Virus record (IMG/VR): IMGVR_UViG_3300020191_000954
DNA from: an uncultured virus (IMG/VR IMGVR_UViG_3300020191_000954)
Lineage: Duplodnaviria; Heunggongvirae; Uroviricota; Caudoviricetes
Reading direction: 5' to 3' (one strand)
Length of the DNA: 59,854 bases
In this document: positions 1-30,364 of the stretch, piece after piece
Layout of the letters: the number at the start of each line of letters is the position of its first letter
Position numbering within the stretch: position 1 is the first letter of the stretch
Program-made: the position numbers and the translations under genes
The notes under the pieces: generated by a model
What the model was told of the DNA's origin: nothing
The model's database searches: none
Seen by the model: only the letters and a program-made list of their open reading frames with translations

Positions 1-1
1 G

Positions 2-805
2 TCCACCCATGTCATCTGTGCTAGATGAATCATAAGCAACTGATTGAACTGTATCACCGTCATATACCCAGAAGTTAAATTCTGTAGTACCGTCCATAAT
101 TAATGGAGCACCAACTGCTTTAGTTCCGTTTGTATTAACATGATAAAATGCACCGTTAGTTGGAGCTTCATGTGCAGTAATTGTATTTGTTTCCATGTCT
201 AATGTTAACAACTTGTTAGTTGTTTTACCATATGGAAAAAATACAACTTCATTTAAATCTTCTACGTACACACTATGAATAGAAGCAAACTTTTCTTCTG
301 TTTCGTGTACAGTAAATGTATTAGCAACAGTATCAAACACAATAATCATTCCACTCATAATTGGTGGATAAACAATTTTAGTACCAACTGTAATTGGGCG
401 ACCAAAGTTAAAGTGTCCACAGAATGTTTTAGGAGTTTCTGAGCCGTGTACTGTAACACCTTTTTCTTCAATCATTGTAACTTCATTAGTATCTAAGTTT
501 ACAGCCGCTACTCTAATAATGCTGTCTACTTTGTCTTTTTGTGTACGCATTACATATGCTGTATTACCTACAACTGCAATACCTCGGTATCTGTCACCGT
601 TATCACTTTTATCAAAAAAGTCTACAAATGTAGTACTATCTGCATTTACTCTAAGCAATCCTGCTCTTGCACCTGCATCTTTGTTAAAATCTCTTGTTTC
701 TTCGCCTTCGTGACGTGCTTTTCCGTTAGTGATTACTGACAAAAATTCACCATTTCCTAAGTGGTATGGTTCGTCTAATACCTGTGTAAAATATGTGTTG
801 CTCAT
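2..805 (-). CDS. Beta-propeller-like repeat protein, 3'-truncated by window edge (paralog of 7818..9044 and 9037..10167)
   Basis: Not in the ORF track. Manual translation from ATG at 805 (AGGAG SD upstream) gives MSNTYFTQVLDEPYHLGNGEF...GTKIVYPPIMSGMIIVFDTVAN...NEVVFFPYGKTTNKLLTLDMET..., open to the window edge, with the same 'I(Y/F)xP(Y/F)G...L(V/T)(F/L)DT' repeat as the two + strand paralogs. Confidence 0.7.
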   Translation of the reverse strand, partial: MSNTYFTQVLDEPYHLGNGEFLSVITNGKARHEGEETRDFNKDAGARAGLLRVNADSTTFVDFFDKSDNGDRYRGIAVVGNTAYVMRTQKDKVDSIIRVAAVNLDTNEVTMIEEKGVTVHGSETPKTFCGHFNFGRPITVGTKIVYPPIMSGMIIVFDTVANTFTVHETEEKFASIHSVYVEDLNEVVFFPYGKTTNKLLTLDMETNTITAHEAPTNGAFYHVNTNGTKAVGAPLIMDGTTEFNFWVYDGDTVQSVAYDSSSTDDMGG

Positions 806-823
806 TATTATCTCCTGTTACTG

Positions 824-1552
824 TTATTTATCTGCTATATTGCAGTTTATTAATAAAAGCGATTGCATAAAATCGTCATCAACTCTGGACAATAAGTGTA
901 CTCGCTCTGTACTTCCGTTATTTTCTGTACCATGTGGAACTAGGGTATTAATTATATATCCTTTGCCCAATTCCATGTGATATGTTCGTTCTCTGTTTTC
1001 GCCAAAAGTAAAAACAGCATCTTTATTTGTATAAAATGGAACATGTAGTTTTCTAGTTTTTCCGTCAGTATGTGTATTAACTTTAAGTCCACTAGGGTGT
1101 AATGCTATTAACATCTGTCTTAATGATTGCAAAGATAGTGTTTCTAACATTTTGTTTAAGATACCAAATTTATAAACTTGCATTGGTACACAATCATAAT
1201 AGAATTTTTCTTCATCTAAATTTTGTAATTCAGGATACATATCAATGTTAGCTTGTGATTTACTTGGACATGGAATATCTCGCTCTATTGGCCAACTAAC
1301 ACTCCAACCTTGTACGTTTCCTTGATAATTTCCAACTGCATTTTCTTTTTGAAATCTATCATATATTTCAGGACGTAGATATTCTTTAGAATTAAAACTA
1401 AAGCATAAATTTTGTAATCGTGTTTTTAATTGTGTATAATAGAATTCTAAATCATCTTTATTAATGCTAAAGTCTAATTCAATTATATCCCATTCGAGAC
1501 TATTAAATAATGCATCAACATCTGTTATATCTTTAGCAGTTAATAATCTCAT
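824..1552 (-). CDS. Aspartyl/asparaginyl beta-hydroxylase-like 2OG-Fe(II) dioxygenase
   Basis: HxD...H facial triad: 'VNTHTDGKTRKLHVPFYTN' and 'INTLVPHGTENNGSTERVHL'. Confidence 0.8.
   Translation of the reverse strand: MRLLTAKDITDVDALFNSLEWDIIELDFSINKDDLEFYYTQLKTRLQNLCFSFNSKEYLRPEIYDRFQKENAVGNYQGNVQGWSVSWPIERDIPCPSKSQANIDMYPELQNLDEEKFYYDCVPMQVYKFGILNKMLETLSLQSLRQMLIALHPSGLKVNTHTDGKTRKLHVPFYTNKDAVFTFGENRERTYHMELGKGYIINTLVPHGTENNGSTERVHLLSRVDDDFMQSLLLINCNIADK
825..831 (-). promoter_or_regulatory. Putative T4-type late promoter core (ATAAATA)
   Basis: Minus strand reads GATAAATAACAGTAACAGGAGATAATAATG upstream of the 805 start. T4 late consensus is TATAAATA. Confidence 0.5.
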
Positions 1553-2100
1553 ATGTAATGTTCAGCAGGTACTTTAAAAAATAAATGTACTCTATCTGTT
1601 TCTCCGTTATTAATAGTACCGTGTGGGCGTCTAGTATTTATTAGATATGCTTTTCCAATAACTAACGAATATTTTTTATCACCAAATACAAAACATGCAT
1701 CAGGGTTACTTAGTATAGGAATATGTATTTTAAGATATCTATCAGTGTCGGTGTGCTGTGCTATTTCAGTTCCGGGTGGATGGCCGCTAATACTAAACTG
1801 TCTTGCTTGAGGAAATTTTACTTTAAGTCTATTAATTACACCGTATACTAATTCAGTATCTCTATAATCATCGCTACCTTCCTTGTGTACATTCCAAGGT
1901 GGACAAGGTATTGTTAAGTCGTCTAAATTACTTTGTATACCCCAACCGTATACACCATCAGTTTTATGTTTTTCACTATTAACAGTATCAGCTACATTAG
2001 TAAATTTTAAATGTTCAAAGTTTGTTTGTAATCCTATGTAGTAACTTCTAAAGTCACTATATTCGATCCCTATAGGTAATTCTTTTACATCAAAGCTCAT
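1549..2100 (-). CDS. Aspartyl/asparaginyl beta-hydroxylase-like 2OG-Fe(II) dioxygenase
   Basis: 'PPGTEIAQHTDTDRYLKIHIPILSN' and 'NTRRPHGTINNGETDRVHL'. Confidence 0.82.
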   Translation of the reverse strand: MSFDVKELPIGIEYSDFRSYYIGLQTNFEHLKFTNVADTVNSEKHKTDGVYGWGIQSNLDDLTIPCPPWNVHKEGSDDYRDTELVYGVINRLKVKFPQARQFSISGHPPGTEIAQHTDTDRYLKIHIPILSNPDACFVFGDKKYSLVIGKAYLINTRRPHGTINNGETDRVHLFFKVPAEHYI

Positions 2101-2518
2101 CTAGTGTATTCCTTATAATTGTATATGCATACTTTCCATTATGTTTAATTCTAGTATTATTTACATAATCTGCAACTGCTTTGCTACGTGATTCGCCTTT
2201 CATACAATGAACATGAATTGTTCCACAAGCATCTTTAAGGAAATTTGAAATGTGTTGAATTTGTGTTAGGGTTGGTGCAACTGCTTTGTAATATGATTGT
2301 ATATCTTCTCCCCAATTTGTTTGATCTTCAGCAACATCATCAAAACATAAATTTAATACATTGGGATGAAATTGTTTAAAATAAGGCTCACTGTTTGGAC
2401 CACCTGTTGAATCAATGCAAATATAATAATCATTAGTATCTTCAACTGTTACATCTGTGATATTTTCACTTTGCATTTTAGATACAAAGTCTTTCTTACT
2501 ATAACTTACGGCAATCAT
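2090..2518 (-). CDS. Cysteine-dependent (CX5R) protein-tyrosine/dual-specificity-like phosphatase
   Basis: P-loop 'IHVHCMKGESRS' preceded by the 'LNLCFDD' general-acid loop. Confidence 0.78.
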   Translation of the reverse strand: MIAVSYSKKDFVSKMQSENITDVTVEDTNDYYICIDSTGGPNSEPYFKQFHPNVLNLCFDDVAEDQTNWGEDIQSYYKAVAPTLTQIQHISNFLKDACGTIHVHCMKGESRSKAVADYVNNTRIKHNGKYAYTIIRNTLDEL

Positions 2519-3146
2519 CTGTCCAAACCTTTCCGTATAAATGTATCCTATCCGTTGTACCTTTGTTTTCTACACTATGCGGAATAGTTGTGTTAACAAG
2601 ATAAGCCCAGCCTACTTCCATATGGTATTCTTTTCCGCCTATTATCCAATTACTGTCTGCATTGGTATGTATAGGTATGTGTACACGTATTTTATCTGGA
2701 GCGTCTTGGTGTGTAATTAATTTAGTACCTGGTGTATGAATAGTTACTAACCATTTCTTACTACGCATAGGCAAATTGTTTACTAAATCTAATCCATATC
2801 CTTTAAAACATTCCCTTGGATTAAGCTCGTCATTATCATTATCTCTATACTCTGGCTTTGCACACCCTTGTTCAAATGGTTTAGGTCCCGGTTCATCACT
2901 ATTCCAACAAAGAGTATAGTATGCTGTATCGTCCATTAGACGATGCCCTGTCTTTGCTTCAGGATCACTAATAGGAAACTGCCATACATGTTGTTGTTCA
3001 CCTATAACAAATTTCCAATCGCTGTAATCTTTTTCTAAGTCAGCGTACCAACTTTGTATTTCATCCGGATTAACTCTGCATAACTTTTTAACTGCCCAGC
3101 CTAAGTCTGCTTGGTCATGTTCCTCTATGTAACGCTTCATCTCCAT
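2499..3146 (-). CDS. Aspartyl/asparaginyl beta-hydroxylase-like 2OG-Fe(II) dioxygenase
   Basis: 'TPGTKLITHQDAPDKIRVHIPIHTN' and 'NTTIPHSVENKGTTDRIHL'. Confidence 0.82.
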   Translation of the reverse strand: MEMKRYIEEHDQADLGWAVKKLCRVNPDEIQSWYADLEKDYSDWKFVIGEQQHVWQFPISDPEAKTGHRLMDDTAYYTLCWNSDEPGPKPFEQGCAKPEYRDNDNDELNPRECFKGYGLDLVNNLPMRSKKWLVTIHTPGTKLITHQDAPDKIRVHIPIHTNADSNWIIGGKEYHMEVGWAYLVNTTIPHSVENKGTTDRIHLYGKVWTDDCRKL

Positions 3147-4615
3147 TAGGCGTACCTCTGATGTGTTAGTCTAACACCGTTACGCACTCGTGAATTCATA
3201 TCAACTGCAACATAGTCGTGTCCATACAACACAAGATCGTCTGGTATTTGAGCTTCAAACTTTGCCCATTGTTGTTCTAACTCTTCTGGACCTAGATTCC
3301 AATGAAGCATTTCGCTTGACCATATGTTTGTAGTCCATAATACCTTAGTACCATGCACACTATTAATAACATCAAATAATTTAGTATTATCATATACAAG
3401 ATCTACTACATGAAATTCATGTTTTAAATTTTTATATCTTTCCCAGAGTCTTTGAAATGCTAAACTACCACCAAAGTCTTTTAATTCTTGTTCCCAAAAC
3501 TGTTTATAGTTTCCTCTATAGGTACTACTAAAATTATATTCAAGATCATGTTCAAGTAACCAAGCATCTAAATCATACCCGTCCCATGTTTCTAATAAAT
3601 GCTTTTTATAGTTTAAACTTGCTTCGCACCAATCAAAATAATGTACTGTTGTACCCGCATGAAAGCCGTTAGCATTTAAAATAGCAAGAGGTTTAAAACC
3701 TGCGGCCGCACTAAACAGATGATCAATTAGTTTGCCTCCTGTACGAACACCTTCACTACTTAATGTTTCAGTATTAAAAGCATATACACGATTCTTTTCA
3801 ATTTCTTCTTGATATCCTAACTTACGTATCCACGCTCTTTGACTTTGATTTGTTAATTCGTCTACTACAGGGCTTTGTTTGTCATACCATACTTTGCTTA
3901 ATTTTTCAGAATCAATGTACGGATACAAAAATACTTTGCAGGCTCGCATATCGTTGTCTAAATTATCAATCTGTATGTTTTTACGCATAGCAATATCAAT
4001 CCAATTAGAACCATCGCTAGTTGTAGCATACTTACTTGTGCCTTGCATGGGTTTAATCCATTTAGGTGTGTAAGTACTGTGAATAGTATCGTCACTTAGA
4101 CAATAATTTTGTAACTCCGGTTTTCTGTCCCAAAAAACACCCATCTCATCAAATGCTGGCTTTCCTAATTCAACCCATTTACTTAAATTTACAAACAAGT
4201 ATTGTCTATGTAACCCAGGGTATGCACCTTTAGTAAGATAATGTTGATTCTTCTTGTCCATAATATGTCCAACTACAAAAAACTGCGGATTATTTTTTGC
4301 ATATTCCACACTTTGTTGCACTAAGTTTGGACCTCTAAACAATAACAGTCCTTGACATGCTACCATTGCAAACTCTTTGCCTTTTACTAGTGCTTCTTCA
4401 AGAATTGTTTCAACACGGTTATGAAATCCTACGTAACTACACATGTTCATCTTTAACATACGGTTAACATAAAAATATGTCATATCAAAAGAACGCTTTT
4501 GTACTGTAGCATCTGGTATGTCACGACTAATATTAAGAATTCCTACACCAACACGATTGTCGAGATTGAGATTCTCGTAGTATCTATCAGCTGTGATGCT
4601 ATTCCAGTCTTTCAT
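3146..4615 (-). CDS. Hypothetical protein; possible N-terminal GT-A-like plus C-terminal Rossmann methyltransferase-like fusion
   Basis: 489-aa ORF. C-terminal 'LFSAAAGFKP...VHYFDWCEASL...FHVVDLV...VLWTTNIW' follows class I SAM-MTase strand order. N-terminal 'VVGHIMD...YPGLHRQYLFVNLSKW' is weakly GT-like. Confidence 0.4.
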   Translation of the reverse strand: MKDWNSITADRYYENLNLDNRVGVGILNISRDIPDATVQKRSFDMTYFYVNRMLKMNMCSYVGFHNRVETILEEALVKGKEFAMVACQGLLLFRGPNLVQQSVEYAKNNPQFFVVGHIMDKKNQHYLTKGAYPGLHRQYLFVNLSKWVELGKPAFDEMGVFWDRKPELQNYCLSDDTIHSTYTPKWIKPMQGTSKYATTSDGSNWIDIAMRKNIQIDNLDNDMRACKVFLYPYIDSEKLSKVWYDKQSPVVDELTNQSQRAWIRKLGYQEEIEKNRVYAFNTETLSSEGVRTGGKLIDHLFSAAAGFKPLAILNANGFHAGTTVHYFDWCEASLNYKKHLLETWDGYDLDAWLLEHDLEYNFSSTYRGNYKQFWEQELKDFGGSLAFQRLWERYKNLKHEFHVVDLVYDNTKLFDVINSVHGTKVLWTTNIWSSEMLHWNLGPEELEQQWAKFEAQIPDDLVLYGHDYVAVDMNSRVRNGVRLTHQRYA

Positions 4616-4616
4616 G

Positions 4617-5315
4617 TTACCCTTGATTAGTATAATAGCTTTGTCTTAGCACGTAAAAGAAATCTCTAATACGTCTACCTAATTCATAATGTATAATCAT
4701 ATGTATACGAGGTTTATCACTATCGTTATATACTGCATGTACATTTGATATGTCCATTAAGAATGCACTACCGCTATCTTCAAACGGCACTATGCCGTGA
4801 TCTTTAAAAATAAATTTGCAATTTTCTGGATTATTTAAACTAATATTGCAAACACTTAAACGTTTTTCTTCATCTGACCTATCTTGATGTGGAAGTATGT
4901 AACCGCCTGGTTCAAGCAACATAAATCTTACTCGATTTAAAAACTCTGCAGGCCACACATCTGTTAAAAACTTTTTAGTAATAGGACATTCGTCTGCTAC
5001 CCAAGTCCAATCTAATTGTTTGATAGTTTCATCTCTATCACCATACCCACCTAAACTTTGTGTGTCATCATTTAATCCGTGTAGTGTTAAACTTTTCCAA
5101 CCTTTGCCATATGTAGTTTCTCTATGTGGATAAAACTTGTCTGCAAGTGCTTCTGCTTCTGCATACATTTCTTTCCAAGGTTGATTATCCAAAGCACTTA
5201 GCCTAAAACAAGGCCAGCCGCTTTCCATTACAATCCATTTAGGGTCAAATTGCTCTGGGTACTTTACAGTAACAATGTCTTTCCTACGCTTTATATGTTC
5301 TATATCTGCTGTCAT
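4617..5315 (-). CDS. Aspartyl/asparaginyl beta-hydroxylase-like 2OG-Fe(II) dioxygenase
   Basis: 'GWKSLTLHG', 'RVRFMLLEPGGYILPHQD' and 'HAVYNDSDKPRIHMIIH'. Confidence 0.85.
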   Translation of the reverse strand: MTADIEHIKRRKDIVTVKYPEQFDPKWIVMESGWPCFRLSALDNQPWKEMYAEAEALADKFYPHRETTYGKGWKSLTLHGLNDDTQSLGGYGDRDETIKQLDWTWVADECPITKKFLTDVWPAEFLNRVRFMLLEPGGYILPHQDRSDEEKRLSVCNISLNNPENCKFIFKDHGIVPFEDSGSAFLMDISNVHAVYNDSDKPRIHMIIHYELGRRIRDFFYVLRQSYYTNQG

Positions 5316-5343
5316 AACTCTACTATATCATTAAACTATCTGT

Positions 5344-5349
5344 TAAATA
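5344..5349 (+). promoter_or_regulatory. Putative late promoter core TAAATA, 5 nt before the ATG of the + strand cassette
   Basis: GTTAAATATACTTATG in the 39-bp divergent intergenic gap. Confidence 0.4.
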
Positions 5350-5354: not shown

Positions 5355-6332
5355 ATGCCATACCTAACAGCTAATACCTTAGATGCGATTGTAGTAGATT
5401 TTACAAGTCATTGTAATTCTATGTGCGGAAATTGTAGTAGGAATCTAGGTGGTGTTAAGGTAAATCCTTTAATGCCATTAAGCCATATGACTATGAAAAC
5501 ATGGAAAAATATCATAGATAATGCTACTACTAATGAAATAATATTTAATGGTAGTTATGGAGATCCGTTAATGAATCCTATACTAGTTGAAGCACTCGAA
5601 TATGCCGCTTCAGAAGATATACAAATTATGATTCATACTAACGGTGGTATAGGTGTGCCAGAACAATACGTTGCACTAGCAAATGTATTAAAGAAGTTTA
5701 AACAACCTAGTGGCATTACTTGGAGTATAGACGGATTAGAAGATACTAATCACTTGTATAGACGAGGTGTTATATGGGAACGTATTATGAACAATGCCAA
5801 AGCATTTATACAAGCTGGTGGTAAAGCACGTTGGCGTATGCTAGTATTTGATCATAATGCACACCAGTTAGAAGAATGTGAACAACTATCTAAAGACATG
5901 GGCTTTTTAAAGTTTGATGTCAATGGTGGATTTGCATTTACTGCTCTTAATAGTATGGTTGATAATGCTATTGAAAAATTTAAAGAAAATAAAAAGGACA
6001 AAGCTCGTGTAATTAAATATGATAGTAAACATCTTGATCATATTGAACGATTAGAAAAAATTAAAGACTTTAGTGACACTACTATTAAATGCAAATGGCA
6101 GAACAAAAGAAAAATACAAATAAACCATGTAGGTGAAGTATTACCGTGTTGTTACTTACTAAGTGACCGTTGGCCTAAAGACATTAATAGTCCATATGCT
6201 AAACAACAAAAAGATGTTGTATGGCCTAACGTAAATGATAAGTCACTAACAGATATAATTGAAGGTGAAGAATTATTAATGCCAAGTAAAAACAGATTTA
6301 AAATATGTGAGGTAACCTGCGGTGAAATGTAA
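5355..6332 (+). CDS. Radical SAM protein with C-terminal SPASM/twitch domain
   Basis: CxxxCxxC 'CNSMCGNC' and C-terminal 'CKWQ...GEVLPCCY...ICEVTC'. Start moved to ATG 5355 because the ORF-track start overlaps the divergent gene. Confidence 0.88.
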   Translation: MPYLTANTLDAIVVDFTSHCNSMCGNCSRNLGGVKVNPLMPLSHMTMKTWKNIIDNATTNEIIFNGSYGDPLMNPILVEALEYAASEDIQIMIHTNGGIGVPEQYVALANVLKKFKQPSGITWSIDGLEDTNHLYRRGVIWERIMNNAKAFIQAGGKARWRMLVFDHNAHQLEECEQLSKDMGFLKFDVNGGFAFTALNSMVDNAIEKFKENKKDKARVIKYDSKHLDHIERLEKIKDFSDTTIKCKWQNKRKIQINHVGEVLPCCYLLSDRWPKDINSPYAKQQKDVVWPNVNDKSLTDIIEGEELLMPSKNRFKICEVTCGEM

Positions 6333-7395
6333 GTACTTAGACAATCAAGTGTGTGTGCGATCAGATGGGCAATATCGTTTGTGTTGTGTTAGCCTTGAAC
6401 AAAATAATAAAGAAAATATTAAAACACACACTCCACAAGAATGGCATGACAGCGATTTTCATAAAAAAACAAGAATGCAAATGTTAAAAGGTGAATGGCC
6501 TGATGCTTGTACACGTTGCGAACTACAAGAACTACAAGGTATTGACAGTATGCGTACTAGGGTAAAACCAGACGGTACTAGATACGTTAGGAATTTCTTT
6601 GGTCCTGGAATAAGTCATCTTGATATTAGATTTGGTAATAGCTGTAATCTTAAATGTGTTAGCTGTTGGGAAATGAGCAGTAGTAGTATTGCTGAAGAAG
6701 CTATTGAAATGAAAAAAGCTGGCATTGTTCCGTTGCACGGAGTACTTGAAGTTCCAAACTTTAATTGGGCTTCGGAAGAAACAATGAAAAAATTCGACGA
6801 CTTACCTATTAGAGAAGTTTATCTAACAGGTGGTGAACCTATGATGGTTAGACACTTAGACAAGTTTTTAGAAAGACTTGATCCTAGCGTGTTAGTTAGA
6901 TTTAATACTAACGGAACTATATGGAACCCTAAGATTGAAAAACTATTAAGAAGATTTAATATGGTAATCATGAGTCTTAGTTTAGATGCCGCAAGTAATA
7001 AAATTGATTATATTAGAAGTGGAAGTAAATGGAGCGAGATAGAAGTTAATGCACAAAAGTATGCAGACTTTTGTAAGGTTGACGTAACTCCAACACTTAG
7101 TATTCTTAATGCATTGTACTATAACGAAATTAAAGAGTATGCAGAAACAAATAATTTTAAATTGTACGATAATTTATTAATATTACCAGAATGGTTACAT
7201 GTTAAAAATGCTCCAACTGTTTTAAAAGAACAGTTCAAAGGAATACACCCAGATGTTGATCAATGGGCAAATCATCCTAGTGATCCAAAAATTATTGAAC
7301 ACTTCATAAGACAAATAACAAAACAAGATAATTGGCGTAAACTATATATTAAAGATTACTTGCCGGAGGTTGCACAAGCATATGGAATTGATTAA
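6322..7395 (+). CDS. Radical SAM protein with N-terminal twitch domain
   Basis: N-terminal 'MKCKY...DGQYRLCC...PDACTRC', core 'CNLKCVSC', 'LTGGEP', 'FNTNG'. Confidence 0.88.
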   Translation: MKCKYLDNQVCVRSDGQYRLCCVSLEQNNKENIKTHTPQEWHDSDFHKKTRMQMLKGEWPDACTRCELQELQGIDSMRTRVKPDGTRYVRNFFGPGISHLDIRFGNSCNLKCVSCWEMSSSSIAEEAIEMKKAGIVPLHGVLEVPNFNWASEETMKKFDDLPIREVYLTGGEPMMVRHLDKFLERLDPSVLVRFNTNGTIWNPKIEKLLRRFNMVIMSLSLDAASNKIDYIRSGSKWSEIEVNAQKYADFCKVDVTPTLSILNALYYNEIKEYAETNNFKLYDNLLILPEWLHVKNAPTVLKEQFKGIHPDVDQWANHPSDPKIIEHFIRQITKQDNWRKLYIKDYLPEVAQAYGID

Positions 7396-7837
7396 AGAAA
7401 ATAAAGAAATAGGCAGAAAAGTTTTTGAACTTGAAGATAGGTTTCGTAAAGAGTGGACTATAATTGATCAAGAAAGACTTGAAGAACATATTATCATACT
7501 AGGTGAAGTTATGGAGGGTTGGGTAATTGACTGGGGTATCAAAGATGACAAAATGTTTATTGAGTATCACAAAGTTCCTGGTACACCTGCAAGTAAATTT
7601 GCACATACTCCGCAGTTTATAAAAAAGATTTATGATTTTTGTATTTTTACTATCAACGAAACTAGTCCATATGCACACTTTGATTGGGTGCTAAGTAATA
7701 TTATGATCGACGGTGATAACATGTACATGGTTGACTGGGATAACGTTGGCTTATACAGTGAAGAACAAATTATGACTAAGTTACATTCAGACTTAAAAAG
7801 TGCATTTGGAGATAAATTTGACCCCGCAAGCCTTTAG
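7382..7837 (+). CDS. Small protein-kinase-like/aminoglycoside-phosphotransferase-like protein
   Basis: Catalytic loop 'HFDWVLSNIMID' followed by Mg-binding 'MVDWD'. ATG at 7382 overlaps the upstream gene. Confidence 0.65.
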   Translation: MELIKENKEIGRKVFELEDRFRKEWTIIDQERLEEHIIILGEVMEGWVIDWGIKDDKMFIEYHKVPGTPASKFAHTPQFIKKIYDFCIFTINETSPYAHFDWVLSNIMIDGDNMYMVDWDNVGLYSEEQIMTKLHSDLKSAFGDKFDPASL

Positions 7838-18159: not shown

Positions 18160-18470
18160 AATTCATTTACCAATTGATCAAACGCTTCTTCGCCTAGTAT
18201 GTTATATAATAACACAACTATGAATATAAACCATAATACCCAAAACACATAATAACCTAACTTTGTCCATCCCAATCCTAGTATTTTATATACTGTTGGC
18301 ATAGGCAAATACTTTTCAAATACTGTAGTAATGTCCCATACAAATTTTAACATAAAGATCCACATGAATGCTCTCACGTATTTGTTCTCTATGTCAGACA
18401 CTTTAAAATTTTTTTGTGCTTCTGTTACTTTTTTATCATGCGCCTTATAGCGTTCCCATAACTTCTTCAT
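18156..18470 (-). CDS. Small membrane protein
   Basis: 104 aa with hydrophobic stretches 'AFMWIFMLKFVW' and 'YYVFWVLWFIFIVVLLYNIL'. ATGA-type overlaps at both ends. Confidence 0.6.
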   Translation of the reverse strand: MKKLWERYKAHDKKVTEAQKNFKVSDIENKYVRAFMWIFMLKFVWDITTVFEKYLPMPTVYKILGLGWTKLGYYVFWVLWFIFIVVLLYNILGEEAFDQLVNEL

Positions 18471-22177: not shown

Positions 22178-22191
22178 TCATTATATACGCA

Positions 22192-22213
22192 TATAAATAC
22201 AGTAGTATTTATG
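22192..22213. promoter_or_regulatory. Pair of oppositely oriented late promoter cores in an inverted repeat (TATAAATA on +, CATAAATA on -)
   Basis: ATAAATAC-AGTA-GTATTTAT perfect 8-bp inverted repeat in the 49-bp gap between divergent genes. The + copy matches the T4 late consensus TATAAATA exactly. Confidence 0.65.
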
Positions 22214-22226
22214 GAAAGTTACCCTT

Positions 22227-23510
22227 ATGAAGTTAATTAAAGACTCGATCATTCGTAATGAATTTATTCAGCAACCAAGAACTACGCTATCTATTCAAAA
22301 ATTAATCGAACAACTAGGACGAAGCGAGACAGACTTTAGTGACGTGTCTATTGTACACTCGTTAATTAAGTATCCTAAGTGGCACAAAGAAACTAATATA
22401 TTTCAATTTATCAAACACACTTGGCAAAAACAGTTACGTAAAGATCCAAAATGTTTCTTTTTCTTTGATGCTAGTACTGAAGGATTTAGTACCATACATG
22501 ATGTACCGTTTTTTGATGTGTTATACCATAGTTGTAATCAAGCAAGGATTGATCCTGAAAAGATTATTTTCTTTAGTTCAAACATGTACGACCAAGATAA
22601 TATTATTCGTTATAACATGGAAAATAATATTACAAATTCAATTAAAGTTGTTACGTTTAATAATTTTGAAAGTATGATATTTGGTATTGCAGGAGCTCAG
22701 GGAATTGGCAATAATGTAACTCAACATATTGAAAATAGAAATGTTGACGACTTTGTAGCAACTCGTCTAAAAGAAGAAAAATATGAAGCTGAACAACGAT
22801 ACAAAGGAAAAATATTTTTAAGTCTAAGTCGTGTTAATAGACCTCATCGTACTGTGAGTGCATTTGAAATTTTTAATAGTGATTTAATTTATCATGGTAT
22901 GGTAAGTCATAATAAATTTGAAAAACAAACATTAAAACATTGGCAAAGCTATCAAATGCCCGTTGGATGTAACATATCTAAAACTGAAATCAAAGCATGG
23001 AATAAACATGCACTTCCTTTAGTTGTAGACACTCCTGATTTTGTAACTAATCATGCTATGAGTCTGAGTAGTTACTTGCATCAACAAACTTTGTTTCAAG
23101 TAGTAAATGAAACGTTTGCTGAAAATTGGAATGGCACTAGTTTATTTTGGAGTGAAAAAACATTTAGAAGTATATATCACTTACAACCATTTATTATATT
23201 TGGACAACACCAAGCTAATCAGAAATTACAAGACTATGGCTATAAACTATATGACGGTGTATTTGATTATAGTTTTGATAACGAACGTGATACATATAAA
23301 CGCTGGACTAAACTTAAAAAAGAATTATCTAGACAGGTAAACGTATTATCAGCACTACCAATAAAGAAACAACTCCATTGGAAATGGAGAGTTGCAGATA
23401 TTTCGGCACATAATCTTAAAACTATGATTGAAGAAGAACATACTAAAAGTGTTATGACAAATTTGATTAAATACATGAAAGAGAAAAAAGATGAAAAAAC
23501 TAATTCATAA
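22227..23510 (+). CDS. Hypothetical protein, possibly glycosyltransferase-like
   Basis: 427 aa. 'FLSLSRVNRPHR...VVNET...FWSEKTFRSIYHLQPFIIFG...GYKLY..FDYSFD' resembles the nucleotide-sugar-binding C-terminal half of GT-B/GT10-like proteins. Confidence 0.45.
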   Translation: MKLIKDSIIRNEFIQQPRTTLSIQKLIEQLGRSETDFSDVSIVHSLIKYPKWHKETNIFQFIKHTWQKQLRKDPKCFFFFDASTEGFSTIHDVPFFDVLYHSCNQARIDPEKIIFFSSNMYDQDNIIRYNMENNITNSIKVVTFNNFESMIFGIAGAQGIGNNVTQHIENRNVDDFVATRLKEEKYEAEQRYKGKIFLSLSRVNRPHRTVSAFEIFNSDLIYHGMVSHNKFEKQTLKHWQSYQMPVGCNISKTEIKAWNKHALPLVVDTPDFVTNHAMSLSSYLHQQTLFQVVNETFAENWNGTSLFWSEKTFRSIYHLQPFIIFGQHQANQKLQDYGYKLYDGVFDYSFDNERDTYKRWTKLKKELSRQVNVLSALPIKKQLHWKWRVADISAHNLKTMIEEEHTKSVMTNLIKYMKEKKDEKTNS

Positions 23511-24357
23511 CACACCTCAAAGAATATTCACATTTGGTTGTAGCTTTACAGGATATCAATGGGGTACATGGGCTAACATTTTAGGTGTAGAATTTCCTGA
23601 TGCAGAGTTTAGAAATTTTGGTCGCAGTGGTGCAGGTAATCAGTATATACATAATATGATTATGCAGGCTGATAATGTGTACACATTTGATCATAATGAT
23701 TTAGTTATTGTGCAATGGACTAATGTATGTCGTGAAGATAGATTTTTACCTGAAAAAGATGGTTGGTTAGTTCCAGGTAATATATTTTCTCAAGGAGAGT
23801 ATGATCAGCATTTTTTAGAAAATTATTTTAGTGAGTATGGGTCATATGTTAGAGATTTTGCACTAATTAAAAGTGCTCATCAGTTATTAAAGCATCGCAC
23901 ACAACATCACATGATTAAGATGTTAGATTTTGAATTTCCAAATCAATGGGAGTTGACATCAAAGAAAAATATAAATCTTGAAACACTTGCTGGATTATAT
24001 CACGAATGTTTAGATGCAATTCTTCCTAGTTTTTATCACACACTATGGAACAACGATTTACAGGCAAAGACTGTGAAAGATAAAGGACTAGTCCACAAAG
24101 GATTTCAAGACGGGCATCCTAGTCCACTTGAACATTACGATTATCTAAAACATACATTTAAACACGACTGGAAGGAATCTACTGACAAAGCAGTCGGTGC
24201 CGCACAAACTAAATGGATTAAGTTGATGCAAAGTGCTGTTCTAAGTCAAGAGGGTGCATTTAGTTTATATAGTATGAAACCGCGTTGGTTAGATATGTTA
24301 AAGTACGAAACTATTATGCGTCCTAATACACAAATTAATCCGTTAATACATCAATAA
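23491..24357 (+). CDS. SGNH/GDSL-fold protein
   Basis: 'FTFGCSFT', 'NFGRSGAGN', 'DLVIVQWT', 'DGHPSP'. Confidence 0.65.
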   Translation: MKKLIHNTPQRIFTFGCSFTGYQWGTWANILGVEFPDAEFRNFGRSGAGNQYIHNMIMQADNVYTFDHNDLVIVQWTNVCREDRFLPEKDGWLVPGNIFSQGEYDQHFLENYFSEYGSYVRDFALIKSAHQLLKHRTQHHMIKMLDFEFPNQWELTSKKNINLETLAGLYHECLDAILPSFYHTLWNNDLQAKTVKDKGLVHKGFQDGHPSPLEHYDYLKHTFKHDWKESTDKAVGAAQTKWIKLMQSAVLSQEGAFSLYSMKPRWLDMLKYETIMRPNTQINPLIHQ

Positions 24358-25528
24358 GTTCAGGAAACGTTTCGTTAAAAGAACGATTACGAATTTTATC
24401 AAAGTACATATTGTTAGATTTAAACAAATCATTTGCACTTTGATCAAATGTTGACTTGTGCAAGTAATCAATAACACCATTTACATATCTTAAATGTTCT
24501 GTATGTGTTACTGTATTTGCGTATGCTTGTAACTTATCTATTGCAGTTTGTCTTTGTTCATCTGTTAGTGCATTAAAACTGTAGTAATTAGGTTCAACAA
24601 TATTATAAAGCGTACTGTTGTTTACATCAAATCCTTTGCTAGACATATATTCTAAAAAGTCTACAAGTGTTAATACATTAAATGCACTTACTACACAATT
24701 AAAACTAATAATTACATGCGGACTTTCTTTTTTAATAATTTTTAAGTTTTGTTCTATAGTTGGCCAATCAGTACCTTCTCTAATATACTCGCCTCTGTTT
24801 CCATAGCCGTCAATACTTGCACGTACTTCAACGTGTTTAAAATTATTCCAATACTCTGTAATACTTTTCTTCTTAAAAAATAAATTACTTAAATTACTGT
24901 TGTATTGCAGTACAGCATCAGTCTTTTTATTTTCAATTAAATAATCTAAAATATCATAATGCTTATCTGTAATAAGAGGCTCGCCACCTGCAAAATAATA
25001 ATCTTGAATACCTTTAAGGTACGGCTTAAACTGTTCAAACAAATTATCGTTGTTATCTCCGCCTGCAAAAATGTATACAGGTTTATTTTCACCTTGCTTG
25101 TTATCTTCTACAGCCCATGTAGAACTGTAAGTACTACTACAGGTTCTGCATTTAAAATTACAAATGTTGCTCCAACGTACATCAAAGTATAGTAACTTCA
25201 TTATATCTAACGAACCGTCAAAATTGGTTTCGTCTTTTATACTAATATGCTGTGCAAATCTATTATTTTGTGCAATTCTATTGCTTTCTATTCCTGCTTC
25301 TTCGTGTTTCCAACATTGTGTACAAGCACTAGGCTTTTCATTGTTTAATAATGCAAGTCTTAATTTTTTATATTCTTCACTATTCCATATTTCTTTAATA
25401 GTGTTTTTACGTGTGTTGCCAAGAGGTTGACGCCAATCACCTATACAACAAGGAAGTACATTGCCGTCTGGATTAGCATAGAAATGAATCCACGGAAGTA
25501 TGCAAAATGTATTACTTTCCGCAGTCAT
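24335..25528 (-). CDS. Radical SAM protein with N-terminal twitch domain
   Basis: 'FCILPWIHFYANPDGNVLPCC...IKEIWNS...PSACTQC', core 'CNFKCRTC', 'FAGGEP'. Confidence 0.9.
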   Translation of the reverse strand: MTAESNTFCILPWIHFYANPDGNVLPCCIGDWRQPLGNTRKNTIKEIWNSEEYKKLRLALLNNEKPSACTQCWKHEEAGIESNRIAQNNRFAQHISIKDETNFDGSLDIMKLLYFDVRWSNICNFKCRTCSSTYSSTWAVEDNKQGENKPVYIFAGGDNNDNLFEQFKPYLKGIQDYYFAGGEPLITDKHYDILDYLIENKKTDAVLQYNSNLSNLFFKKKSITEYWNNFKHVEVRASIDGYGNRGEYIREGTDWPTIEQNLKIIKKESPHVIISFNCVVSAFNVLTLVDFLEYMSSKGFDVNNSTLYNIVEPNYYSFNALTDEQRQTAIDKLQAYANTVTHTEHLRYVNGVIDYLHKSTFDQSANDLFKSNNMYFDKIRNRSFNETFPELIDVLTD

Positions 25529-26885
25529 TATAAAAGCCTTCTAGTTCTGGAAAAGTTTCTACCAAATTACAGTTACGTCTACGATCAAATTCTTTGAACC
25601 AGTTATGAAAATCTCTACGTGCTTGTTCTAGCTTACGTGGTTCATAATGTGTTGTACGCATATACTCTACTACACGTTTAAACTTTTCGTATTCTAACCC
25701 TGTAAACTTAGTACGATTAGTATCGTCTTGGTTATCTTTAATAAATTGTAAGTGTTTTTCCATATACGGCATAAATTCTTCTTTAGGTAAAATGTTCATG
25801 TCATATATGCTTGGTTCTTTTAAATGAGGTGTATCAAATCTAATACGTTGCCACTGAGTAGCATTGTCATCACTATTGTATTTTGTACGCCACTCTAGTA
25901 TTTTTTCTAATAGTTGCGTAAAACTAGTTACACCAAATATATTAAACGTAATCATAAATGTTACAGGCCAGTTTGTATTGCTTAGATAATAATCTAAGTT
26001 TTGTTCCCATAACTTAATGTCTAACCCGGTACGTGCATATTCTGCTCTTGGTCCCCAAGTATCAATACTAGTGTACAATTTAAAACTTTTAATCTTGCCT
26101 TCTGCTTTTAAACGCTTAACTGTTTCAGTTAGTCTTTCAACTAGCTTAGGCTTAACACCCATGTTACTGTTTACTTCAATTTGTATGTGTGGCTTAGGAT
26201 CGTTATCTAACTTTTCTAACAGTTTCCAAAAACTTTTATGCATCAATGGTTCGCCGCCTGTAATACGCAAAATGTTTAGTGTCTTACTAAGTTCAGGCCA
26301 CCATTCCCAAAACGCTTTTACGTATGGATTCGTGTCTTCGTCTTTTTGTACTTCAAACCAATCAATGTCTTGTCTATGTGTGCTTGACATATCGTATGGT
26401 CCATGTTGTTTTATTTCGTTCCAATACCTACTAGAGGCTTTAGGGTGACAGTATCCACACTTAAAATTGCATTCATTACTAAAACTAATTTCAATATACT
26501 CAGGATTTACGTTAAAATCCGCCCCTTTTTGTTTTATTTCCGCTACTCTTTCAGGTGTGTATATACTTGCAGTTTTAATATGTCTATCACTTACAAAGTC
26601 TTTACCCATTGCTTCAATTTTCCAACAGTAACTACAACCGTCTGGTTTATCTCCGCATAGCATTTGTTTACGCTGTTCTTTTTTCTCAATAGTATTATGT
26701 AACGCACTAGGATTGCCTTCTAATTCTTCTAAAGGAATTTTATGCGGAGCAGGATGATAACAACTATGTGTTTCTCCTGTTGCAAGATAGATAGTTGTGT
26801 GATGCCATTTTGCTAAACAGAATGTTGGAGAGGTTTCATCCTCAATTTTAGGCATTAGTGTTTTAATTTTTTCTAATTCACTCAT
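25512..26885 (-). CDS. Radical SAM protein with N-terminal twitch domain
   Basis: 'FCLAKWHHTTIYLATGETHSCYH...DGCSYCW', core 'CNFKCGYC', 'ITGGEP'. Confidence 0.9.
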   Translation of the reverse strand: MSELEKIKTLMPKIEDETSPTFCLAKWHHTTIYLATGETHSCYHPAPHKIPLEELEGNPSALHNTIEKKEQRKQMLCGDKPDGCSYCWKIEAMGKDFVSDRHIKTASIYTPERVAEIKQKGADFNVNPEYIEISFSNECNFKCGYCHPKASSRYWNEIKQHGPYDMSSTHRQDIDWFEVQKDEDTNPYVKAFWEWWPELSKTLNILRITGGEPLMHKSFWKLLEKLDNDPKPHIQIEVNSNMGVKPKLVERLTETVKRLKAEGKIKSFKLYTSIDTWGPRAEYARTGLDIKLWEQNLDYYLSNTNWPVTFMITFNIFGVTSFTQLLEKILEWRTKYNSDDNATQWQRIRFDTPHLKEPSIYDMNILPKEEFMPYMEKHLQFIKDNQDDTNRTKFTGLEYEKFKRVVEYMRTTHYEPRKLEQARRDFHNWFKEFDRRRNCNLVETFPELEGFYNDCGK

Positions 26886-27766
26886 TTACGAATAACTCTG
26901 TCCGTGTTAATGTATACTTGTTTGAAAAAATGACTTTGTTCATCGTCAAAGGGTGTAGATGAGATAGGTAATCCGCACTCGCTACTAAGACTTTGACCTA
27001 ATTCTTTGCTGTATACTAATGGATCTTTATTTTTTGTTTCTTCCCACAGTTTATTAAGATATATAAAATCTCTTGTTTGCACAAAGTCCCAATCTGTACA
27101 CATTGTCATGTAACAACCTTGTCTTGCTCCCATTACACTCCATATTCCATTGTCTACATCAGCACCAACCTGCATCCATATCAACAAACGTTGATAATTT
27201 TGCCACCAAGTATCGTTTGCAAGGTCTTTAACTTTAGCACCCCTATTCAAACTCATCTTAACTCCTTCACGGAACCCTGCTCTCCAGGCTTGATGTGGAG
27301 TTGCATTTATAAGACTTGTACTATAGTTGTCATTTAATTGATAGTAATTATCAAAGTAACAAAATTCAATACTAGTATCATCTTCACCGTCTGTGTTTTC
27401 ATGCGTTTGCATATTTTTTACAAAGTCTTTAGTCCACATTTTTAAACTGCCATTACCATATTTTAGTCCGTTAACATTAATATGTCCGCACCAACTAAAT
27501 TGATAATCATCGTCAACTTTTAATTCGTCTAAGTCTAGTACTACGTTTAAAAACTCTGGGTCAATAATTGTATCGCCGTCTACTGTAACAAAGTGTTTAG
27601 TTTCGCTCAATTCAGCACAGGCTTTGTGTGCGGCATCTGATCCTTCTACACCGTGTACACGTTTTGCCCACGGAACCTTGTTAACTAAATCAACAAAATT
27701 CTTTTCACAGTTAGGTTCGTCATAACTTAAAAAGATAATATCTTGCTCTGCAATGTTTATTTTCAT
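26882..27766 (-). CDS. GT-A-fold glycosyltransferase-like protein (paralog of 19404..20078)
   Basis: 'DIIFLSYDEPN', 'GSDAAH', 'VTVDGD', 'NGLKYGNG', 'AWRAGFRE'. Confidence 0.65.
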   Translation of the reverse strand: MKINIAEQDIIFLSYDEPNCEKNFVDLVNKVPWAKRVHGVEGSDAAHKACAELSETKHFVTVDGDTIIDPEFLNVVLDLDELKVDDDYQFSWCGHINVNGLKYGNGSLKMWTKDFVKNMQTHENTDGEDDTSIEFCYFDNYYQLNDNYSTSLINATPHQAWRAGFREGVKMSLNRGAKVKDLANDTWWQNYQRLLIWMQVGADVDNGIWSVMGARQGCYMTMCTDWDFVQTRDFIYLNKLWEETKNKDPLVYSKELGQSLSSECGLPISSTPFDDEQSHFFKQVYINTDRVIRK

Positions 27767-28350
27767 TTGATTACCTCGTATAAGTATCTATCAAAGTTTT
27801 TAATTGTATACACACTAACTGGTTTTGCTTTAAATTCAAAATCGCTATCAAATGGAAGTATTACATATTTTACGTCTGATAAATCAGCAAAACTAAAACT
27901 TAATGTTTTTAGTAATATATTTGGATCGTCTTTTTCAGTAACACTAAACGATATAGTATTTTTAAAATTAACTTTTTGTGCTAAAATATTTGCTTTTAGA
28001 TCTCCGCCAATAGTAATCTTCCAACATGTGTCTTTGATATTTTGTAATACATGAATGTCTGGCTCATTAACTGATGTCATTGGTAATTCGTATATTAAAT
28101 CATTTACTAGATAACTATCAATGCTAGTATTTGAACGCTGTCTAAGTTCATATTGTTTAGTATGTTTGATGTAATGTACATAATAATAACTTAGCGGTTC
28201 TTGTCCCGAAATTAATCCTTTAACTTCGTGTTCCTCTACAGGAATATAATTACCATCTGGTTTATAATTAGGTACTGCTAACACATCACCGTTATTAGGA
28301 TCAAATACTACATATCTTTCTTGTTTAGGCAACTCCGCAGTTAATATCAT
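27763..28350 (-). CDS. Hypothetical protein
   Basis: 195-aa ORF coupled by overlaps to both neighbours, with no recognisable motif. Confidence 0.6.
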   Translation of the reverse strand: MILTAELPKQERYVVFDPNNGDVLAVPNYKPDGNYIPVEEHEVKGLISGQEPLSYYYVHYIKHTKQYELRQRSNTSIDSYLVNDLIYELPMTSVNEPDIHVLQNIKDTCWKITIGGDLKANILAQKVNFKNTISFSVTEKDDPNILLKTLSFSFADLSDVKYVILPFDSDFEFKAKPVSVYTIKNFDRYLYEVIK

Positions 28351-29180
28351 ACGTTAAGATACCTTTCGTATTTTTGTATTTTAGACTGATCTAAAAATTC
28401 TTTTTCAGTATAATGAAAAATACCTTGCTGTTGATGATTGCCTATTTTTAATTGTAGGTCATCAGTTAGATATGCACCCACTCTACTACGCCATGTTTCA
28501 CTAGGATTATACCATCCTTGTATTCTAGGCTTCATATGTGTAAAACTAGGAAATGACACTTTCTTATTTGTAATTCTGTCTTCACAATCAAGTATCTTTG
28601 TAACGATTGCTGTGCTTGTGTCAACGCTTAACCAATTTTGATATTCTTTACTTGCATATTTTCCATAAAATAATTGCCAGTTGTTCATTACTAATTCTAA
28701 CATTGTATAAAATTCTTTTGCAAAGTCACATTTTTTAAAATAATGAAAGCCTGCATAAACGTTTGGTAAGTTATTTGCAATATATGTTTTACGATAGTAA
28801 GTGTCGTTAACTTCGTCACCTCTATATGTGTATACTTTGCTAGTATAAAACACTTCATAGTTGCTTAAAAAGTTCCACCATGAATCTAAATTTTGTAATA
28901 CAAGCATATCAGTATCCATTACAATAGTTTCATCATACGGACTAGCATGATATAACTTCCAACGATTAGCTACTTTCCATTCCATATTAGCGGAATCGTC
29001 TTCCCACGGTATTTCTTTAATAACATCAAACAGATCTACATACCTAGATGGTACTGTATCGTTGGTTAACAAACAAACTTTAGTGTCATTAGTAGCTCTA
29101 ATACTCATAGCTAACGCACACGCTTGTTCTACGTAGTTATATTCGCTGTTTTGTGCTATTAAGACTATACCTTTAGTCAT
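28347..29180 (-). CDS. GT-A glycosyltransferase (GT8-like)
   Basis: 'ACALAMSIR', 'LYHASPYDETIVMDTDML' (DxD), 'NVYAGFHYFKK'. Confidence 0.72.
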   Translation of the reverse strand: MTKGIVLIAQNSEYNYVEQACALAMSIRATNDTKVCLLTNDTVPSRYVDLFDVIKEIPWEDDSANMEWKVANRWKLYHASPYDETIVMDTDMLVLQNLDSWWNFLSNYEVFYTSKVYTYRGDEVNDTYYRKTYIANNLPNVYAGFHYFKKCDFAKEFYTMLELVMNNWQLFYGKYASKEYQNWLSVDTSTAIVTKILDCEDRITNKKVSFPSFTHMKPRIQGWYNPSETWRSRVGAYLTDDLQLKIGNHQQQGIFHYTEKEFLDQSKIQKYERYLNV

Positions 29181-30021
29181 TGTCTATGATCCTATTCAAA
29201 CTAAACTTGTTCATAACGTGAACACTACTACCTTTAATACGCAAAGGTGTGTATTCTCCAAGGTGTCCTTCTTTTTCTACTAAAAATAAAAAGTTGTCAT
29301 CTTTTAATTCCCACAAAATATCTCTATCTGCTGTATAATATTTTTTACCCGGTAATGAACTTGCAAAATCTCCTGCTTGATAACCATTCATAATATGTAT
29401 TGCAATACTAAACACCCAATCATTACGAAACGTTGGTTTGTTAATTTGAAATATACTGTTATAGTGTTGCCAGTTATCTTGTATATGTTGTGTTAAATTA
29501 AAAAATGTTTCTACTTCTTTGCTTTTTTTAAAATATACAACTGTCGCCCAATAAAAATCAATACTAGTTTCACTAATTTTTTGAAACTCGGTAGTATCTC
29601 TAAATCCTGTTAGGTCTTTTGCATCTTTATATATTAAGAAATTGTGTTCTTGTGTAAAACAATGTTTGAGTACATCATTTGCAATTATATAATCACTGTC
29701 TAACATTATTGTTTCGTCATACGGTGTTAGTTTATAGGCTTGTGTACGCAAGTCATTTTTAAATGATAGTTGTTTGTATACCCCCGAGCCGTCATAGTAA
29801 CGTTTTTCGCTGGCGCCGCGAGCATATGGAACTTCGATTACATTATCAAATACTGTATCATAATCGACATAGGTATCTTTTAAGTATTCAACACTATCTG
29901 TTACAACAGTTGTTGGTAAATTAAGATATTTGCTTATACGCTTTGCTAGATAATATGCTTGTTTAAGATAATCAACTTGTTCGTTATTTCTAGCAAATAT
30001 TAATGCACCTTTATTCTTCAT
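29173..30021 (-). CDS. GT-A glycosyltransferase (GT8-like, paralog of 28347..29180)
   Basis: 'AYKLTPYDETIMLDSDY' (DxD), 'YWATVVYFKK', 'FRNDWVFSIA'. Confidence 0.72.
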   Translation of the reverse strand: MKNKGALIFARNNEQVDYLKQAYYLAKRISKYLNLPTTVVTDSVEYLKDTYVDYDTVFDNVIEVPYARGASEKRYYDGSGVYKQLSFKNDLRTQAYKLTPYDETIMLDSDYIIANDVLKHCFTQEHNFLIYKDAKDLTGFRDTTEFQKISETSIDFYWATVVYFKKSKEVETFFNLTQHIQDNWQHYNSIFQINKPTFRNDWVFSIAIHIMNGYQAGDFASSLPGKKYYTADRDILWELKDDNFLFLVEKEGHLGEYTPLRIKGSSVHVMNKFSLNRIIDND

Positions 30022-30364
30022 ATTCTACAAGCCCAGAGACCTTTCGAAGGCTCCGTATCTTTTCGTATTCTGTTAGGTACTCGTTTGATGCTGTAAAGTA
30101 GATATTTAAAATGTCACCTAAGAATGTTTCAACATCTGCAACTTTAATAGGAATATCATTGTCGTCAATTAGTACTACAGACTCTTGTCCTGTGTTTACT
30201 AACATACTACAAAAATTCATTAGGTCTTTGTTTACGGAGAATTGTCCACCATTGTGGTAGTGTATTGCACTTTCATAAAACTTCTCTTTTAACACCCGTT
30301 TTTGGTTGTTAAGAGTAGTCATATAATTGGCAAAATCTAATGCTTTTTCAAGACGTTCATCCAC
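30011..30364 (-). CDS. Hypothetical protein (first gene of the enzyme island; possibly tail-fibre assembly related)
   Basis: 117 aa, GTG start with strong AAGGAG SD, directly after the fibre genes. Confidence 0.6.
   Translation of the reverse strand: MDERLEKALDFANYMTTLNNQKRVLKEKFYESAIHYHNGGQFSVNKDLMNFCSMLVNTGQESVVLIDDNDIPIKVADVETFLGDILNIYFTASNEYLTEYEKIRSLRKVSGLVEYEE

Follow-up and report, generated by a model that had tools for sequence, protein, structure and literature searches.

Within a 59,854-nucleotide stretch of DNA from an uncultured virus (Caudoviricetes; IMG/VR record IMGVR_UViG_3300020191_000954), hereafter the window, the leftmost 30,364 positions are occupied by an island of tailoring-enzyme genes, g1–g36 (numbered from left to right among the window open reading frames (ORFs) g1–g46). 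Judged by gene content and order, it is a real and conserved system, by prediction a variant of the virus-encoded glycosylation islands, and two layers can be distinguished. The first is a fixed core of six genes, g36-g35-g34-g33-g32-g25, encoding four proteins with a predicted glycosyltransferase (GT) fold and two of unassigned family, and the second an accessory layer whose size ranges from none to about 35 genes, drawn from the radical SAM, oxygenase, dehydrogenase, SGNH, methyltransferase and halogenase families.

The core is tied to g37, the gene immediately before the island. This is seen in two sets of loci whose counts are not independent, as the sets overlap, contain near-copies and are biased to close relatives. 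In the first set the pair g37-g36 is the immediate upstream neighbour of g35 in 77 of 80 loci, and contig edges cut off the remaining three. In the second, every one of the 50 loci that have 4.5 kb or more of sequence ahead of g32 carries g37, g36, g35 and g34 on that side. The synteny comparison proposed in an earlier note on this DNA, made from the letters alone, ties the core to g37. Downstream of g32 a twitch radical SAM gene follows in 99 of 146 loci, and 43 of 146 pass straight to g25. None of these 43 core-only loci has an ORF with a CxxxCxxC motif further along; in the six that were detailed, what follows is thyX together with the flank genes that also end the island in the window, and four core-only contigs (13–23% complete) contain no Radical_SAM match above cut-off. 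Because so many loci have the core alone, the tailoring enzymes are accessory, and the 30-kb block, which the earlier note took as one system, is no single obligate pathway. The accessory layer is non-random, with nearly the whole island order kept in the relatives G003 and G006; as many as 18 radical SAM matches are present in another, G004.

Cultured relatives place the core in the same context. Among 50,697 phage records searched, g35, g34 and g32 matched only Ralstonia phage RsoM2USA, where the core plus g31 and g22 (eight genes) lies behind a g37 paralogue, ORF355; the annotated fibre ORF415 and a second g37 paralogue are about 60 kb away, which supports a tie to the virion gene. The core proteins of the salt-marsh phage and this soil phage are 35–45% identical. 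In PA5oct the g42-g37 block is annotated as virion proteins detected by mass spectrometry (MS), with no core behind it. The two comparisons together indicate that g37 is a virion protein, by orthology, and that the core accompanies it and is dispensable for a tail of this kind. Atu_ph07 has three annotated radical SAM genes near a fibre gene and no core by profile search. Ten virion bands were identified in RsoM2USA, and the word 'radical' is absent from the available part of that paper (PMC8504454). The g37 model itself has no clear PDB match, its best hit (Z 7.0) being to a common beta-sandwich, with three viral models also matching; a prediction of a g37-g36 complex scored 0.00 and gave no answer.

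In its right half the window carries the baseplate and fibre module of a myovirus. The baseplate wedge protein there is 35–38% identical to its counterparts in Phosso, Atu_ph07, fHe-Yen9 and BF-type jumbo phages, by which the phage is a Rak2/Atu_ph07-like jumbo myovirus and, its wedge being of this type, not a pelagimyophage or cyanomyophage carrier. The window is present, in reversed orientation, in the nearest record, G001 (267,783 bp and about 75% complete, so that a gene missing from it is weak evidence of absence; families were scanned in 140 of its 203 listed proteins), which encodes a gp23-type capsid, and the stretch was found in 14 RNA runs from salt marsh or marsh.

The 36 island ORFs are tightly packed, with 32 of 35 junctions overlapping or separated by no more than 1 nt, and form five transcription units on both strands. 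Beyond the left edge, G001 continues with the rest of g1, a PF05118 oxygenase, a thioredoxin, a Trp-halogenase, an unassigned protein, an AMP-binding enzyme and an Mtd_N fibre gene; the island therefore extends to about 34 kb and 41 genes, running some 4 kb past the window as far as another fibre gene. The chemistry-enzyme island of over 30 kb and about 35 closely joined genes that the earlier note described is borne out by this packing and by the family matches; its placement directly downstream of the fibre genes is not, as g37, which is no fibre gene proper, lies between. The features are:

2..805, minus: g1, 5′ part of a 415-residue protein, propeller-like by eye, continuing outside the window; no family match
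824..1552, minus: g2, Asp/Asn beta-hydroxylase-like oxygenase (PF05118)
825..830, minus: TAAATA motif at the end of g2, before g1
1549..2100, minus: g3, Asp/Asn beta-hydroxylase-like oxygenase (PF05118)
2090..2518, minus: g4, CX5R phosphatase-like (motif; DSPc E 0.003)
2499..3146, minus: g5, Asp/Asn beta-hydroxylase-like oxygenase (PF05118)
3146..4615, minus: g6, conserved protein with 175 homologues; no PDB or family match
4617..5315, minus: g7, Asp/Asn beta-hydroxylase-like oxygenase (PF05118); unit head without TAAATA
5344..5349, plus: TAAATA, 5 nt upstream of the g8 ATG
5355..6332, plus: g8, radical SAM with C-terminal SPASM/twitch (Pfam and motif)
6322..7395, plus: g9, N-terminal twitch radical SAM (NF033640)
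7370..7837, plus: g10, kinase-like by motif; no family match
7800..9044, plus: g11, propeller-like by eye; no family match
9037..10167, plus: g12, propeller-like (Kelch E 0.0045)
10142..11263, plus: g13, N-terminal twitch radical SAM (NF033640)
11244..11792, minus: g14, SDR-like (NCBIfam E 9e-5)
11789..12724, minus: g15, radical SAM (Pfam and motif)
12721..13377, minus: g16, probable oxygenase (HxD...H motif)
13364..14008, minus: g17, Asp/Asn beta-hydroxylase-like oxygenase (PF05118)
13999..14688, minus: g18, no family match
14685..15263, minus: g19, no family match
15263..16588, minus: g20, N-terminal twitch radical SAM (NF033640)
16557..17555, minus: g21, radical SAM, SPASM/twitch (Pfam and motif)
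17548..18159, minus: g22, methyltransferase-like (family members); also in RsoM2USA
18156..18470, minus: g23, small membrane protein with a clear membrane helix; skipped in one variant contig
18467..19426, minus: g24, radical SAM (Pfam)
19404..20078, minus: g25, core, GT-A-like; g32 paralogue, often fused to g32
20079..20996, minus: g26, SGNH-like (motifs)
20993..22177, minus: g27, nucleotide-sugar (UDP-sugar) 6-dehydrogenase (family matches)
22192..22213, no strand: inverted repeat, face-to-face TAAATA for g28 (plus) and g27 (minus)
22227..23510, plus: g28, possible GT10-like (GT-B) transferase (Atlas lead 0.78)
23491..24357, plus: g29, SGNH/GDSL-like (family members match GDSL)
24335..25528, minus: g30, N-terminal twitch radical SAM (NF033640)
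25512..26885, minus: g31, N-terminal twitch radical SAM (NF033640); opens the accessory layer in most relatives
26882..27766, minus: g32, core, GT-A-fold protein by prediction, with invariant DxD
27763..28350, minus: g33, core, two-domain, adaptor-like
28347..29180, minus: g34, core, GT8/glycogenin-like (profile match)
29173..30021, minus: g35, core, g34 paralogue (profile comparison)
30011..30364, minus: g36, core, small conserved protein
30384..30412, minus: overlapping promoter-like elements; weak −35 (30412–30407), 17 nt, TATAAT (30389–30384), with TAAATA (30398–30393) in the spacer
30416..31309, minus: g37, virion protein and candidate acceptor (PA5oct orthologue MS-detected); helical N-domain and beta-sandwich
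31314..36675, minus: g38–g40, tail-fibre-like genes (family scans)

The assignment of the core to glycosyltransferases comes from profiles, folds and paralogy, as no GT-like island gene has a Pfam match; by these means four to five of the four to six that had been claimed stand as GT-fold proteins. The g34 profile matches glycogenin (E 2e-4) across the N-terminal 100 positions only, and g35 is a g34 paralogue by profile comparison (99.65%), with neither matching PF01501. The g32 model (pLDDT 79.8) is predicted to adopt a GT-A fold with a DxD motif (D63 and D65 are invariant), with Foldseek matches at E 3e-4 to 9e-4 and, in structural alignment, Z of about 9; the capsid GT of PBCV-1 (PDB 2p6w) aligns with Z 8.7 and a root-mean-square deviation of 4.0 over 144 aligned positions. 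Its paralogue g25 shares 29% identity, g32-g25 fusions make up 54 of the top 120 g32 hits, and the g32 family comprises at least 8000 clusters. Outside the core, g28 is a possible GT10-like protein, its Atlas lead of 0.78 being under the 0.9 mark and PF00852 matching 0 of 33 family members. No PDB profile match under E 0.03 was obtained for g35, g32 or g28. A tail-fibre chaperone domain guessed by eye in g36 found no Pfam support, and no fusions of g33 to enzymes were seen, the 24 longer hits being insertions or duplications within g33; several relatives (P0288, P0317, P0323 and others) carry repeat-like inserts of 100–400 residues between the two g33 domains.

All nine radical SAM proteins in the earlier count contain CxxxCxxC and match Pfam Radical_SAM (seven above cut-off), and all nine Radical_SAM matches of G001 fall inside the island, with a weak QueE-like match outside. 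Five exceed the curated NF033640 cut-off of 170 bits (g9, 228; g13, 224; g20, 419; g30, 387; g31, 329 bits), and g8, g15, g21 and g24 are under it. The NF033640 twitch proteins of the island have N-terminal auxiliary cysteines as well as CxxxCxxC, are 23–31% identical to one another, and each groups with its own orthologues in a quick tree. The other predictions fared variously. The UDP-sugar dehydrogenase is g27 by family match, and five of six Asp/Asn-hydroxylase-like proteins (g2, g3, g5, g7 and g17) match PF05118, but g16 has only the HxD...H motif. The labels of SDR (short-chain dehydrogenase/reductase; g14), phosphatase (g4), SGNH (g29, with 6 of 28 family members matching GDSL, and g26 by motifs only) and methyltransferase (g22, 3 of 11 family members) are weak. 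One of the three propellers, g12, has a weak Kelch match but g1 and g11 have none, and the kinase-like g10 has its motif but no family. Family-library scans gave no match for g10, g11, g18 or g19, and PDB profile searches with g29, g22 and g6 none under E 0.03. Apart from g23, the island proteins lack a clear membrane helix, and a hydrophobic N-terminus is seen in no protein of the island. One RNA-run contig (X8) omits exactly the g23 gene (window 18162–18465), and G006 lacks g23 and g14 by ORF calls. In another relative an island gene (L131:11411-12016) encodes, by eye, an alternative-oxidase-like protein.

In cells, NF033640 proteins above cut-off were found in three of 401 genomes sampled from one phylum, one of them the metagenome-assembled genome (MAG) on which the sample was centred. 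G113 (54% GC, beside dnaE and accA) has four copies in an rmlC-rmlD-wzm-wzt-methyltransferase-wbsX locus, one fused to Wzt, and G179 has one beside GT2 and NDP-sugar epimerase genes; these two cases, few as they are, suggest sugar editing as the cellular context. In the fusion (G113:C19, L208:8579-11143), a twitch radical SAM domain is attached to a Wzt ABC ATPase that has a Wzt_C domain. In a quick tree the five cellular sequences fall into a clade of their own. With the g37 linkage and the confinement of the G001 radical SAM matches, these surface-glycan relatives support the proposal of a coherent, tail-linked and sugar-directed system. Three hits in a search of genome contigs are MAG contigs, two of which have the phage order including g38-g37 and were hence not counted as cellular. 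Contigs with phage gene order and many twitch radical SAMs also occur in the bacterial MAGs G011 and G012 (21 and 7 matches above cut-off); these may be phage DNA placed in the wrong bins, which would make the family look more widespread in bacteria than it is.

Upstream motifs bear on the timing of expression; the four RNA runs examined consist of contigs, which carry no information on strand, level or timing. The TAAATA motif of structural genes is real: it lies upstream of 49 of 115 G001 genes with intergenic upstream sequence (11.6 in shuffles), is scarce elsewhere (23 sites in 30.4 kb, 79 expected) and is conserved before g41 (37/38) and g38 (78/84). It heads four of the five island units, the exception being g7, and precedes g27 in 21 of 25 relatives. 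All five positions that had been listed (825, 5344, 22192, 22205 and 30393) do carry it; the site at 825, at the end of g2, is within a unit and not at its head. The late promoter recognised by T4 gp55 is the octamer TATAAATA, which in T4 serves late genes. This full form occurs once in the window (22192), the conserved element being the shorter TAAATA core, and no gp55 match was found among the 140 G001 proteins scanned. By analogy TAAATA may work like the T4 late promoter, its lateness being argued from the link to structural genes and the T4 precedent. At the core head, TAAATA is present in 24 of 99 distinct sequences upstream of g36 (7.8 expected) and, counted by 47 clusters, in 17, with sigma70-like sites in 31; it heads the core in 52 of 88 loci with expanded islands and 2 of 30 with minimal ones. 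RsoM2USA has TAAATA there and no sigma70 site, and in the window both elements overlap. A generic promoter scan gave no excess over shuffles, the window g36 site being absent among the 60 rows shown because of its weak −35 box, and no terminator was found between g38 and g36. The available part of the PA5oct paper reports only sigma70-like motifs (PMC7318152). The late expression claimed earlier is borne out only in part: TAAATA has its link to structural genes, but the core head in relatives is mostly sigma70-like, and these motifs make early-plus-late expression, depending on lineage, likeliest.

Several further sites were noted. Many G001 TAAATA motifs lie 11 nt before the start (e.g. window 5344 and 56079), leaving 5 nt between motif end and ATG, a spacing suggestive of leaderless late transcripts. 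Between g27 and g28 a perfect 8-bp inverted repeat sets two TAAATA motifs face to face (22192–22213), with similar pairs at G001 251,297–251,366 and 257,376–257,422. An A-type Fe-S carrier gene (G001 250,974–251,297) has a late-type TAAATA upstream, suggesting a late demand for Fe-S clusters.

We propose, at about an even level of belief, a two-layer cytoplasmic glycan pathway whose product is placed on the virion. The core would be transcribed from a host sigma70-type promoter, and again late, through TAAATA and by transcripts running on from the fibre operon. Its four transferases would assemble a short oligosaccharide on a protein of the phage, either g37 or the fibres; g36 and g33 would serve as adaptors, and g27 would supply uronic-acid donors. 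The twitch radical SAM enzymes would oxidise, epimerise or deoxygenate its sugars, SGNH and methyltransferase proteins would acylate and methylate them, and the oxygenases would hydroxylate sugar substituents or protein side chains, so that the variable accessory layer diversifies the particle surface. The strongest argument for a virion product is that one core is kept with one virion gene across habitats; its conservation at 35–45% identity would fit a phage-encoded acceptor better than varied host O-antigens. A more far-reaching and rather unlikely proposal is that a widespread jumbo-phage clade has a protein-glycosylation machine of its own, made up of four transferases and two adaptors and serving a dedicated virion protein, and that some lineages have added nine radical SAM proteins, seven oxygenases and a halogenase, which edit one glycan into a lineage-specific coat, possibly anchored on hydroxy-Asp/Asn; if so, it would parallel O-antigen diversity on the phage side, through radical sugar chemistry so far undescribed.

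Several observations weigh against a virion product. PA5oct makes the same virion module without the core, and the Ser/Thr content of its g37 (0.222) equals that of island-linked g37 proteins (0.226). The fibres, described earlier as rich in Asn, Asp, Thr and Ser, are somewhat Ser/Thr-richer than the enzymes, but no richer in Asn/Asp (0.12–0.16 versus 0.08–0.17 in enzymes). The g32 match to the PBCV-1 enzyme is no higher than to nucleotidyltransferases, the two classes tying. The remaining points are also those from which a different target is best argued, namely the host surface, with early soluble enzymes editing O-antigen or lipopolysaccharide (LPS) core before export and so blocking superinfection or grazing. 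Sigma70-like promoters stand at the core head in most relatives (75 of 99 distinct upstream sequences, 2.1 expected), the cellular homologues sit in an ABC-type O-antigen locus, with one fused to Wzt, and G001 encodes KdsA/KdsB- and HldE/HldD-like enzymes (Kdo and heptose pathways) elsewhere. The GT8 family includes LPS transferases. The O-antigen context implies that a soluble enzyme is able to act on polysaccharide of the host surface, so that the lack of membrane helices and signal peptides excludes only periplasmic conversion. The host surface is also the published reading for cyanophage and pelagiphage clusters, in the available parts of PMC7029224 and PMC7824862. Set against these are the invariant tie to g37, the presence of one core across habitats with presumably different hosts, and the absence of any flippase, polymerase or membrane transferase from the island in family scans, and we consider a host-surface target rather unlikely.

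Somewhat less probable is that the core has one target and the accessory cassettes, separately acquired into a recombination-prone slot, have several unrelated ones. The 43 core-only loci, the five units on both strands, the differing accessory sets of relatives and the nine further 2OG-Fe(II) (2-oxoglutarate-dependent) oxygenases scattered across the genome would agree with such a patchwork; the nearly common order of G003 and G006, the separate orthologue group of each twitch paralogue and the confinement of all nine G001 Radical_SAM matches to the island would not. The Trp-halogenase and AMP-binding genes at the far end of the island recall small-molecule biosynthesis, for which precedent exists in the parts seen of PMC2938197 and PMC7824862. 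A halogenated, hydroxylated and glycosylated metabolite is very improbable, however, as family scans found no scaffold synthetase or exporter and the fixed core is one of transferases linked to the gene for a virion protein. DNA can be a substrate of phage glycosyltransferases and oxygenases, and the early promoter at the core would suit hypermodification, but the linkage is to tail genes and not to replication, the FolE/QueD/QueE-like set lies elsewhere, and family scans of the island found no TET/JBP or hydroxymethylase match; this is the least probable target of all. Such DNA modification is touched on in the available part of PMC12619734.

Other sugar-related genes lie elsewhere in G001, including PMM, PMI, two GT8, TylF and two carbamoyltransferases, together with Fe-S carrier and ferredoxin genes. 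A block at 20,530–32,645 contains cupin, 2OG oxygenase, methyltransferase, GT8, TylF and cytidylyltransferase/PMI genes; carbamoyltransferase, SGNH-like and GT9-like (by eye) genes lie beside other structural or fibre-like genes at 66,747–70,376, and two subtilase-family proteases among structural-type genes at 236,879–240,978.

Among known systems, the window island resembles the host-recognition cluster of pelagimyophages and cyanomyophages in being hypervariable, fibre-adjacent and GT-rich, and differs in its Rak2/Atu_ph07-like carrier, its fixed six-gene core tied to one virion gene, and the up to 18 radical SAM matches of one relative. To our knowledge, a radical SAM layer is not known in chlorovirus or mycobacteriophage virion glycosylation, with which the island shares soluble virus-encoded transferases near structural genes and, in g32, a predicted GT-A fold like that of the PBCV-1 capsid GT; that fold match is non-specific and the island is known from genes alone. 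Gtr-type serotype conversion uses a membrane GtrA/GtrB/GtrX set, of which the island has no family match, g23 being its only protein with a clear membrane helix. The ABC-type O-antigen locus of G113:C19 likewise combines tandem NF033640 genes with methyltransferases and a glycosyltransferase, whereas the island lacks Wzm/Wzt and rml genes and the cellular clade is separate. The Syn9 dioxygenase-halogenase arrays and the S-SSM6a cluster share tandem oxygenases and a tryptophan-halogenase-like gene; in the window the oxygenases are of PF05118 type and accompany nine radical SAMs and a GT core. In the portions available of these sources, the pelagimyophage and cyanomyophage cluster, beside tail fibres and with GTs, UDP-glucose dehydrogenase and radical SAM cassettes, is read as host O-chain modification (PMC7029224); mycobacteriophage capsid and tail-tube glycans (Freeman et al. 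2023) are cited, and moraphages of another lineage described with four core GTs, in PMC12619734; tail-collar or collagen-like proteins were proposed in 2010 as substrates of bacterial beta-hydroxylases (PMC2938197, on Syn9); cyanophage LPS and halogenase clusters are treated in PMC7824862, PMC2938197 and PMC12801897; and the terms 'glycosyl' and 'radical SAM' are absent from PMC13282480. In the open-licence literature we found neither a description of the core or its tie to g37 nor a characterised activity for NF033640.

Whether the sugar-enzyme islands of aquatic phages act on the virion, the host surface or DNA is an old question that has been argued from gene lists only. With a minimal core, a candidate acceptor and a cultured eight-gene version in RsoM2USA, it becomes testable. 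The NF033640 family gains a substrate class from its O-antigen context in cells, and five deep paralogues for enzymology from the phage, whose g9, g13, g20, g30 and g31 are members known from genes alone.

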